A DNA stretch of 39,285 nt from Bradymonadales bacterium (GCA_007693605.1 REDG01000049.1:1-39285), one strand, 5' to 3'. Numbered from the stretch's first letter, positions 25,072-27,160 are shown. Made by a program: numbers and translations. The notes: generated by a model not told the origin, from the letters alone.

Positions 25072-25104
25072 GGGGTCGGGAGACGAAAGTGCCAGACTAG
25101 ATGC
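25072..25104 (+). repeat. Repeat copy R1 (33 bp)
   Basis: GGGGTCGGGAGACGAAAGTGCCAGACTAGATGC, identical to 26348-26380; starts 3 bp after the tRNA CCA. Confidence 0.95.
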
Positions 25105-25114
25105 GGCGGCGGCT

Positions 25115-25146
25115 GGCTCTACACCGGGCTCTACAGGCTCTACACC
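25115..25146 (+). repeat. Short tandem repeat, GGCTCTACA(CC) x3
   Basis: Units at 25115-25125, 25127-25135 and 25136-25146. Confidence 0.8.
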
Positions 25147-25208
25147 ATTAAGTGGGGCAGACACTGTTTGTACTCGATTCCATATTCCATCCCAGCCACA
25201 GAGAGCCC

Positions 25209-26273
25209 TTATGAGCCTGTGTTCGGCCACTTGCCGATTTTCTTCCATTTCGCAGATTTACCTCGGCCGAGACATTTGATGCGAGCCTTGGTGCTTAAAT
25301 CCTTTAATACTTTTCGTATCATATCTACGCTAACTCCAGGGCACTTTTGTTGAATGTCGGTGATGTGAAAACTGTCTTTCGAATGACCGATGGCTTGCAA
25401 GATTAAGGCTGTTTTCTCACCTCGTCTTTCCTTCAGGTTACCAATTCGCTGCTCGAATTCACGGTACGCAGACTTTAGAATAAACAAGGTGTAACCAATA
25501 TAAGGCCAAGGATCATGCCTTCCTTGATGCCAGCCCCTAGAAGATTCCTCAAGAGTTTCATAATAGCGACCTTTATTCTCTTCAATCAGGCGCTCCAAAC
25601 TGATGAACCGACCAACTTCTAAGCCAAGGTGGTAGGACTGAAGAAGAATCAGCAGCCTTGAAACGCGTCCATTTCCATCTCGAAAAGGATGAATACAGAG
25701 GAAGTCCAAATTAAATGCCGCAAGTGCAATCATAGGATGAACTGATTTTAGTTTTATGACTTCATCCCAGTGAGAGATAAGGCCTTTCATGGCGTTTGGG
25801 GTTTGTTTTGAAGTAACTGTTTTAAAGCGTACGCGTTCTCTTCCGTCGGAATATCTTTCGATAATATCACCATCCTTATCTTTGTATTTTCCAGAGTCCC
25901 AGATCTCTCCGCGAATAAGCCGATGTAATTTCAGAATCGTTTTTTCTGAAACTGGCAGTTTAGCTTCTTTCTGATGGATGAATTCGAGGGCATTGCGATA
26001 GCCACGGACTTCTTCTTCGTCCCGGTCCCTTAGATTAGACTGCCCTAAAATCACGGGAGCAATGCGGTCTTTTGAAATCTCAACCCCTTCAATTCGATTA
26101 GAAGAAACGGCACTTTCAATTAAGGCATGTTCTTTCAGAGCCTTTAACTTCTGCGGAGATTGATGAGTGTAGAGTTTTTGTTTTCCTTTAGACTCGCCAA
26201 TATCAGCTAAATACCAACTTATGGAAGGGGAAATGGGCGTAGACTCTTTGAGGAATAATTCAAGCGTTTTCAT
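25209..26273 (-). CDS. Fic-family protein with probable C-terminal HTH
   Basis: Canonical Fic motif HPFRDGNGRVSR, N-terminal SSNRIEG, C-terminal DIQQKCPGVS.DMIRKVL...GRGKSAKW winged-helix-like segment. Confidence 0.93.
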   Translation of the reverse strand: MKTLELFLKESTPISPSISWYLADIGESKGKQKLYTHQSPQKLKALKEHALIESAVSSNRIEGVEISKDRIAPVILGQSNLRDRDEEEVRGYRNALEFIHQKEAKLPVSEKTILKLHRLIRGEIWDSGKYKDKDGDIIERYSDGRERVRFKTVTSKQTPNAMKGLISHWDEVIKLKSVHPMIALAAFNLDFLCIHPFRDGNGRVSRLLILLQSYHLGLEVGRFISLERLIEENKGRYYETLEESSRGWHQGRHDPWPYIGYTLFILKSAYREFEQRIGNLKERRGEKTALILQAIGHSKDSFHITDIQQKCPGVSVDMIRKVLKDLSTKARIKCLGRGKSAKWKKIGKWPNTGS

Positions 26274-26274
26274 G

Positions 26275-26323
26275 AATAGGTAATAAGTTTCTTAATTATG
26301 TAACTTAATAGGTAATAACGCAA
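26275..26323 (-). promoter_or_regulatory. fic promoter with two 12-bp direct repeats
   Basis: Minus strand TTGCGT (26323-26318), 17 nt, CATAAT (26300-26295). AATAGGTAATAA occurs at 26275-26286 and 26307-26318. Confidence 0.65.
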
Positions 26324-26347
26324 GTGGCTTTCGTTATCGGGTCGGAA

Positions 26348-26380
26348 GGGGTCGGGAGACGAAAGTGCCAGACTAGATGC
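26348..26380 (+). repeat. Repeat copy R2 (33 bp)
   Basis: Identical to R1; about 100 bp upstream of the transposase start. Confidence 0.95.
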
Positions 26381-26478
26381 TTCCGGCCGAAAGTTTCCGG
26401 GAAACGGGACTTCGGAGTCTCCAGTAGTGCCTGATCAGGGCTTTCTAGTTGGGCATGGTTCCTGCTTAGAGAGAAAGC

Positions 26479-27135
26479 ATGCCGCGTACTCGCCGAGATA
26501 GTAGGCCAGATGGAATCTACCATGTGATGAACCGAGGGATTGATCGAGCCCCCATTGCCCAGGAGGAATGGGCCTTCGCGCTCTTCAAGCGTTGTCTTGA
26601 AGAAATATCCGAAAAGTTCAACGGGATCATTCTGGCTTTTTGCCTGATGAGAAATCACTACCATTTGCTCTTGAAAACGCCTGAGCAAAATCTATCGCGT
26701 ATCATGAAGCACTTTGGCTTTGTTTACACACAACGATTCAACCGAAGGTATGGTCGAGATGGCCCCTTGTTTCGCGGGCGCTTCCACTCCATTTTGGTCG
26801 CCGAAGAGCCTTATCTACTTCAAGTCGTGCGTTACATTCACCTCAATCCTGTCAAAGCAAGTGTTGTGAAGTCTCCTGAGTCCTATCGTTGGTCTAGCCA
26901 TCCGCTGTATCTTGACAATGTGGACGAGCCGAAGTGGCTAGATAAAGAATACATTCTTCGGTACTTTGGGATTGATTCAAAGGAGGCGCCCCGACATTTT
27001 CAGGGGTTTGTCGAAGAAGGTTGCCCTCTAGAGGTCAATGCTTTCTACGAAAGAGTTCGTTTAGCGCGCCGAATCGACGATGATGTTGTCTGGCGCGCCT
27101 ATTTCTCGTCTGTTCAGAAAAAGCAAGTGGTCTAG
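26479..27135 (+). CDS. REP-associated tyrosine transposase-like protein (RAYT/TnpA-REP, Y1 HUH family)
   Basis: MPR..R, YHVMNRG, HUH motif FCLMRNHYHLL, FN.RY.R.GPLF.GRF, YIHLNPVKA (catalytic Tyr), YRWSS. Confidence 0.92.
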   Translation: MPRTRRDSRPDGIYHVMNRGIDRAPIAQEEWAFALFKRCLEEISEKFNGIILAFCLMRNHYHLLLKTPEQNLSRIMKHFGFVYTQRFNRRYGRDGPLFRGRFHSILVAEEPYLLQVVRYIHLNPVKASVVKSPESYRWSSHPLYLDNVDEPKWLDKEYILRYFGIDSKEAPRHFQGFVEEGCPLEVNAFYERVRLARRIDDDVVWRAYFSSVQKKQVV

Positions 27136-27160
27136 TCTGGCACTTTCGTCTCCCGACCCC
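27131..27160 (-). repeat. Repeat copy R3 (30 bp, inverted)
   Basis: TCTAGTCTGGCACTTTCGTCTCCCGACCCC is the exact reverse complement of the first 30 nt of R1/R2 and contains the transposase TAG stop. Confidence 0.95.

Follow-up and report, generated by a model that had tools for sequence, protein, structure and literature searches.

The window, that is, the whole stretch of 39,285 nucleotides analysed here, comes from a 2.19-Mb Bradymonadales assembly (G000; below, C-numbers denote its contigs, other G-numbers relatives, and L-numbers single loci). The locus under study is made up of the following features, given by position and strand.

24994..25068, plus strand: tRNA-Gln(TTG), located behind ispE, with a 3' side that varies across the family
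25072..25104, plus strand: R1, a solo copy of the TIRtron left-end repeat, with the 29-nt core and 4 inner letters common to R2
25105..25132, no strand: short spacer in which the start of the ISL3 end is partly repeated in tandem; its sequence was compared with the copy on C11
25133..25206, minus strand: ISL3-family right end with the last codons, truncated at 2 nt from fic's stop codon
25209..26273, minus strand: fic, 354 aa (PF02661)
26274..26333, minus strand: fic leader, with a likely -35/-10 pair at 17-nt spacing and two 10-nt direct repeats
26348..26380, plus strand: R2, the TIRtron's left terminal inverted repeat, with its own start partly copied in front of it
26479..27135, plus strand: Y1/HUH transposase of the TIRYT type, 218 aa (PF01797, NF047646)
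27131..27160, minus strand: R3, the right terminal inverted repeat of the TIRtron, which gives the Y1 gene its stop codon

The first-pass annotation had read the locus as tRNA-Gln, 3 nt, R1, fic on the minus strand, R2, the Y1 gene on the plus strand and R3 inverted, and this order is borne out. R1 and R2 are indeed identical over 33 nt and 1276 nt apart, and R3 is a perfect inverted match to their first 30 nt. The same annotation stated that nothing but fic, with its promoter and a short spacer, lies between R1 and R2, which is not so: the 104 nt from R1 to the fic stop codon also contain the ISL3 right end. C53 has a complete ISL3 element (C53:48900-50329, L117; its 407-aa ORF belongs to PF01610), and this right end matches the 3' end of that element at 96% over 74 nt. 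Of the eight such ends in the genome, five follow a tRNA at a distance of no more than 240 nt, and in G010 the same end is found 6 nt behind tRNA-Gln. As the ISL3 end is therefore at its usual place behind a tRNA, R1 most simply came later, outside it. The tRNA-Gln gene itself lies behind ispE in 11 of the 12 relatives fetched, with different downstream genes in each, and the comparison of this locus across relatives that had been proposed found neither fic nor a Y1 gene in the fetched stretch of 11 loci. The stretch from tRNA-Gln to prs is variable in all relatives; in the window its part between the TIRtron and prs (27166-30825) encodes a histidine kinase with an RsbRD-like N-terminus, a receiver protein, an AstE-like hydrolase and a response regulator.

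The Y1 gene is present once in the 2.19-Mb assembly. Its product matches PF01797 and scores 80.1 bits against NF047646 (cut-off 80), its HUH motif (H60-x-H62) and tyrosine are conserved in the alignment, and by its alignment position Y119 is likely to be the catalytic nucleophile. The predicted structure (pLDDT 92.6) has TnpA-REP (4er8) as its best PDB match, with an E value of 1.9e-8. A search for a C-terminal helix-turn-helix (HTH) in the protein gave none at E values up to 10. Its closest homologues (42%–51% identity) are about 320 aa long and mostly carry Bac_DnaA_C, a DnaA-like HTH. In the available text of Quentin et al. 2018 (PMC6006769), subclass 2.1 of the TnpA-Y1 proteins is marked by just such a C-terminal HTH (Bac_DnaA_C, HTH_23 or HTH_28), and the subclass is equated there with the TIRYTs and with RAYT group 1 (Bertels et al. 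2017, PMC5581495). The present protein resembles subclass 2.1 in its closest homologues and in having no REP hairpin nearby; it departs from the subclass, as do the Y1 proteins of G004, G010 and G001, in stopping before the HTH (218–240 aa for the four). Because its own HTH is absent while its nearest homologues have one, it is, by sequence comparison, a shortened relative of subclass 2.1 and an atypical member.

The repeats point to the same class. R2 and R3 form long terminal inverted repeats around the Y1 gene, perfect over 30 nt. A REP hairpin was considered and rejected, as the repeat folds no hairpin of its own (z-scores of -0.76 and +0.26), and the GTAG tag is absent from the repeat sequence. 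TIRtrons (TIRYTs) with dispersed families of terminal inverted repeats (TIRs) were described in 2013 by Di Nocera et al. (PMC3733652), whose text, as far as available, gives a GGGGWSAS start for the majority, not all, of TIRYT repeats. The present repeat and that of G004 agree with this start in seven of eight letters, and those of G010, G001 and G009 in all eight. R2-Y1-R3 is a single-copy TIRtron (TIRYT; probably Y1 subclass 2.1, RAYT group 1) with a dispersed TIR family. The first-pass reading of a RAYT-like Y1 enzyme with cognate repeats therefore stands for the enzyme and for the repeats, but the class is the inverted-repeat one of the TIRYTs and not that of the REP-hairpin RAYTs. In eight of nine related loci examined the Y1 gene likewise sits inside one inverted pair, the ninth being a cluster of palindromic repeats. 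Each of five TIRtron-bearing relatives in the family has its own distinct dispersed repeat family (G004, 29 copies; G010, 31; G001, 42; G009, 15; G013, 12), with the Y1 gene in one inverted pair in each.

The first-pass annotation had missed that the repeat is also present outside the fic locus. The genome was searched for the 30-mer, as had been suggested, and the repeat proves to be genome-wide: its 29-nt core has 45 copies in the 2.19 Mb (at most five mismatches), and its first 13 letters occur 39 times against 0.07 expected. Ten of the 45 copies form five close inverted doublets, and the others are solo or in local pairs. Same-direction pairs 0.2–3 kb apart number four (0.9–2.3 kb), as against 0.85 in simulation (p = 0.0125; 20,000 runs on 38 sites, obtained by excluding R3 and counting close copies as one). 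In all four local same-direction pairs, 4–20 flanking letters are common to both members, compared to 7.6% of 974 far pairs. Outer flanks are alike over 6–8 nt, never longer, in six of 990 pairs (0.48 expected; none in 500 shuffles), and a tandem duplication runs across the outer junction in four of 45 copies versus four of 5,000 controls. Among fetched copies in relatives, such junction duplications were seen in 1/29, 1/23 and 0/29. Shared flanks are biased inward in G000 (5/5), G004 (3/3) and G010 (14/14), in pairs that are not independent of each other; G001 has five inward and nine outward, and the bias is not universal. For G004, G010 and G001 the flank counts come from a subset of the copies. 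No consistent target-site duplication appears at the TIRtron or at the doublets, and this candidate was dropped. A second dispersed repeat family, about 120 nt long and with 50–70 copies, occurs in the window at 1-184 and 39183-39209 and often stands at contig ends; four of the 45 TIR copies lie within 150 nt of one of its members, and no mobiliser of this ~120-nt family was identified.

Two copies elsewhere in the genome are informative about R1 and R2. The 4 inner letters common to R1 and R2 occur in just four of the 45 copies, namely R1 and R2 themselves and a single derivative from each (C11:7622 and C39:17777). On C11 the copied stretch begins in the end of tRNA-Gln, 8 nt beyond the outer edge of R1, continues through the repeat into the ISL3 end and breaks off well ahead of fic; its location is a different ISL3 end, where 16 nt are duplicated. 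From this extent it follows that R1 likely served as the donor, the copied tract ending far short of fic. R2 in turn recurs with about 90–120 nt of leader behind tRNA-Glu on C39, lacking the Y1 gene. In G010, a doublet has been recopied 1.5 kb away in inverted direction.

The fic product carries a complete Fic motif at residue 195 and, in its N-terminal part at residue 58, a motif of the inhibitory type, an arrangement that we take to be that of class II Fic proteins. The gene is low in GC (0.43; GC3, 0.40), and its family is found across many phyla at about 60% identity and has been widely transferred. The supposed tie between fic and the repeats does not hold up: the homologue in G001, 71% identical and with the same leader, adjoins neither a repeat nor a tRNA, though G001 has a TIRtron of its own. 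Across 80 fic loci, a Y1 gene is present in one and a tRNA within 1 kb in two. The leader is kept in G001, and homology stops about 14 nt from R2 and about 5–7 nt from the start of the partial repeat. From its -35/-10 pair the leader likely holds the promoter; the output of a consensus promoter scan did not include it. Two further candidates were discarded, an operator shared across the family (seen in only 3/78 loci) and a match of 8 nt, in inverted orientation, of the letters ahead of R1 to the fic leader, which is part of the conserved leader.

Direct repeats are a wider feature of the fic family. They flank fic in 14 of 69 loci versus six of 89 other ORFs of the same loci (p = 0.015; 11 of the 80 loci, which lacked 400-nt flanks, were left out), and a looser test gives 24/78 for fic and 3/110 for other ORFs. 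With the fic family flanked in this way by unrelated direct repeats more often than its neighbours, entry by recombination at any repeat is favoured over a Y1-specific route. The homologues L021-L100 often lie between direct repeats of duplicated gene starts or ends, and some of the duplicated pieces look, by eye from sequence, like restriction-modification genes.

What the repeat pairs bracket differs from place to place. Three of the four same-direction pairs enclose accessory genes: fic, the gene of a 672-aa surface protein, and an orphan present in none of 13 relatives. The fourth, on C32, encloses a PHP gene that is found in seven of 13 relatives, with the same gene order in two or three (G010, G002). 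The same PHP gene stands beside unrelated TIR copies in two genera, at L144 in G009 and on C32. The gene of the surface protein (Ig-like/GLUG) lies between murG and murC (C44:24200-26700, L113), which are adjacent in seven of 13 relatives, separated by other DNA in two and unreadable in four. It is flanked by a duplicated stretch of 110 bp or more, composed of a 75-nt block and a 43-nt repeat-bearing block, that ends 4 nt outside the repeat. This pair clearly brackets a lineage-specific gene insertion. The unitig depth of the insert is 10.4 against 12.8–13.2 beside it (about 20% lower), a weak hint, kept out of the evidence, that part of the population has lost it.

In relatives, G004 repeats bracket glutamine synthetase III, and at L180:4316-5977 a repeat, an orphan and a TIRtron lie between aroA and the shikimate kinase/dehydrogenase gene, within an aro operon. 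In G009 (L146:1121-2021) and G013 (L147), a nucleotidyltransferase-like gene and a CopG-antitoxin gene stand between perfect 42-nt inverted copies. This toxin-antitoxin-like module is at one place in both genomes and is about the size of a TIRtron, while five homologous loci are without such arms; it is a candidate passenger derivative. The use of G009 and G013 as an empty-site pair was rejected, as the region is rearranged and gapped. An HNH-type gene family, multi-copy (about 82% identical) and with its own upstream repeat, is found at C50:35262-36455 and on C42, C70, C28, C3 and others. The duplicates of repeat plus HNH gene on C42 and C50 were rejected as gene capture, because the family is multi-copy without the TIR. 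Two copies have the TIR in front.

We also surveyed 80 Y1 loci, of which 33 were dropped for want of flanks and 15 more for want of a repeat pair, leaving 32 unrelated TIRtrons. Six of these have a third copy 0.3–3.5 kb away, so that a layout of three repeats is nothing peculiar to fic. Three of the six third copies lie upstream and in the same direction as at fic, enclosing a MaoC gene, an orphan or no clear gene; the remaining brackets hold MerR and DnaJ genes or a dehydrogenase group. Across all 32, neither fic nor a tRNA within 300 nt was seen. Targeting of tRNAs by the repeat was rejected: three of 45 copies lie near a tRNA against 0.16 expected, but R1 or R2 gave rise to two of these, and no tRNA lies near any of the 32 other TIRtrons.

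Direct traces of an empty site, a circle or a second cassette were sought as well, and none turned up in data that could hardly have shown them. Exact-pattern scans of metagenome and viral contigs gave no other contig that matches the repeat, and a single public read run, possibly the source of the assembly, contains the locus. There the fic unitig has a depth of 12.7, with neighbours at 12.5, 12.9 and 14.8, a weak test. We take the word size of the unitigs to be 31 letters. A recombinant of identical 33-mers makes no new word of that length and the unitigs break at the repeats, and the test for an empty site or circle is therefore nearly blind. A joint of 25157 to 26347 (29 letters) is not the product of R1 and R2 and likely comes from another locus. 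The R1-R2 and R1-R3 segments are single-copy in the assembly.

It appears, with a probability that we put at about 60%, that in this TIRtron with its 45-copy end-repeat R1 was shed from R2, and that fic is bracketed rather than carried, an order of events that we infer. The HUH tyrosine enzyme would cut a single strand beyond the repeat's GGGG end, at most about 8 nt away from it; inward copying of that strand would then run for a short and varying length before it is joined at another site, often in one of the neighbouring intergenic gaps. The expected outcome would be solos, close inverted doublets, and local pairs with flank letters in common. R1 would have landed one gene from R2, between tRNA-Gln and the ISL3 end, and fic, as a horizontally moving gene, would have reached the tRNA hot spot by its own route. 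The patterns of flanks, junctions, C11 and C39 fit such nicking, copying and rejoining, as in the 5'-phosphotyrosine chemistry that the available text of two studies reports as shown for TnpA-REP (Ton-Hoang et al. 2012, PMC3333891; Corneloup et al. 2021, PMC8266576). Once in place, R1 and R2 could delete or amplify fic through ordinary host recombination. Of the earlier suggestion that fic is cargo, a part survives. Most of the outcomes named beforehand as refuting it were seen: the repeat is scattered, resident genes are bracketed too, and the fic homologue of G001 has no repeat beside it. What is left is the excess of same-direction pairs with common flanks and the murG-murC insertion, so that genes may be inserted at these repeats.

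The most serious competitor, which we consider unlikely on balance, is an insertion that duplicated a long stretch of target, in which the ISL3 end and fic recombined at the left repeat of the TIRtron and so generated R1 and R2, a nick by the Y1 enzyme being optional. The identity of R1 and R2 through the 4 inner letters would be expected, as would the end of the leader homology to G001 close to R2. The murG-murC case is of like appearance, the aro-operon arrangement at L180 is compatible, fic is over-represented between direct repeats, and the pattern has been described for restriction-modification genes (PMC2853133, in the part available). Yet the incoming ISL3 end would have had to hit exactly its preferred place behind the tRNA, R2 has 4 outer letters in common with an old left-end remnant on C39, and resident genes are bracketed likewise. 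A broader proposal, that TIRYT end-repeats are gene-capture platforms, at which a nick outside the repeat lets foreign genes be joined in, the repeat becoming duplicated, or be kept between inverted copies, we regard as distinctly doubtful; it is entertained because fic, the murG-murC gene, the L180 orphan and the G009/G013 module fit it.

That the Y1 enzyme moved the whole of R1-R3 as a composite, with fic as passenger, is improbable. R1 and R3 are perfect inverted copies, the gene neighbourhoods of TIRtrons differ between genera, and in G009, G013 and G001 passenger-like genes are found within inverted pairs; against this, the genome has only one copy of the composite, the association with fic or a tRNA does not recur in the TIRtron survey and hardly does among fic loci, the TIRtron is at the same place in G009 and G013, and the viral and metagenome collections hold no match to the repeat. 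Still less credible is a fic cassette excised between R1 and R2 by the Y1 enzyme at a measurable rate. The direct repeats are identical, and TnpA-REP cleaves and joins away from its sites, with gene sequestering proposed in the text seen of PMC3333891, but the depth of fic equals that of its neighbours (weak evidence), the segment contains IS debris, and other pairs vary in spacing and content. Independent arrival of R1 and R2 from the genome-wide pool is the least plausible of all, for although 45 copies exist and tRNA 3' ends gather mobile DNA, local pairs are in excess and have flank letters in common.

Much of this has precedents: TIRtrons and TIR families are published, and sequestering of flanking genes by TnpA-REP units is already treated by Ton-Hoang et al. 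The TIRYTs of PMC3733652, in the part seen, likewise have a RAYT-like Y1 gene between long inverted repeats starting with GGGG, and moderately abundant repeats in singles, dimers and groups, the repeat overlapping the 3' end of the gene; relative to that account, the one-gene pairs, short common outer flanks and junction duplications are additional here. Classical RAYT-REP and REPIN systems (groups 2 and 3) are similar in their single-copy gene, dispersed repeats and doublets (a minority here), but have tagged palindromic REP hairpins flanking the gene, which are absent here. The E. coli TnpA-REP/REPtron/BIME system shares the fold and a single-copy gene with dispersed repeats, and for it local amplification, sequestering of flanking genes and hicAB replacement have been proposed or seen (PMC3333891 and PMC8266576, in part). 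TnpA-REP differs in its GTAG tag and hairpin and in its subclass, and the present system is known from sequence alone. Furuta et al. 2010 (PMC2853133) describe, in the text available, direct repeats of more than 30 bp on both sides of an accessory gene, with no integrase, as here; their target was often unique and the empty allele was shown, whereas the present target is a multi-copy repeat. Further background is given in a REPIN review (10.1101/2021.07.10.451892) and in PMC3337134. The text of the literature searched contains no cargo-carrying TIRYT (Fig. 9 of Di Nocera et al. and Fig. S7 of Ton-Hoang et al. may bear on this) and no TIRYT biochemistry. The class is large and dates by name from 2013, and two works in the literature searched use that name.

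The locus is likely to be mostly ordinary, a stray end-repeat beyond a neighbouring fic rather than a capture. The genome nevertheless offers a clean system of one enzyme and 45 sites, with a predicted cut up to about 8 nt outside the repeat and inward copying. Should genes truly join in at these repeats, accessory genes would have a new way of being acquired; should they not, the same process would explain why the repeats so often look like cassette borders.
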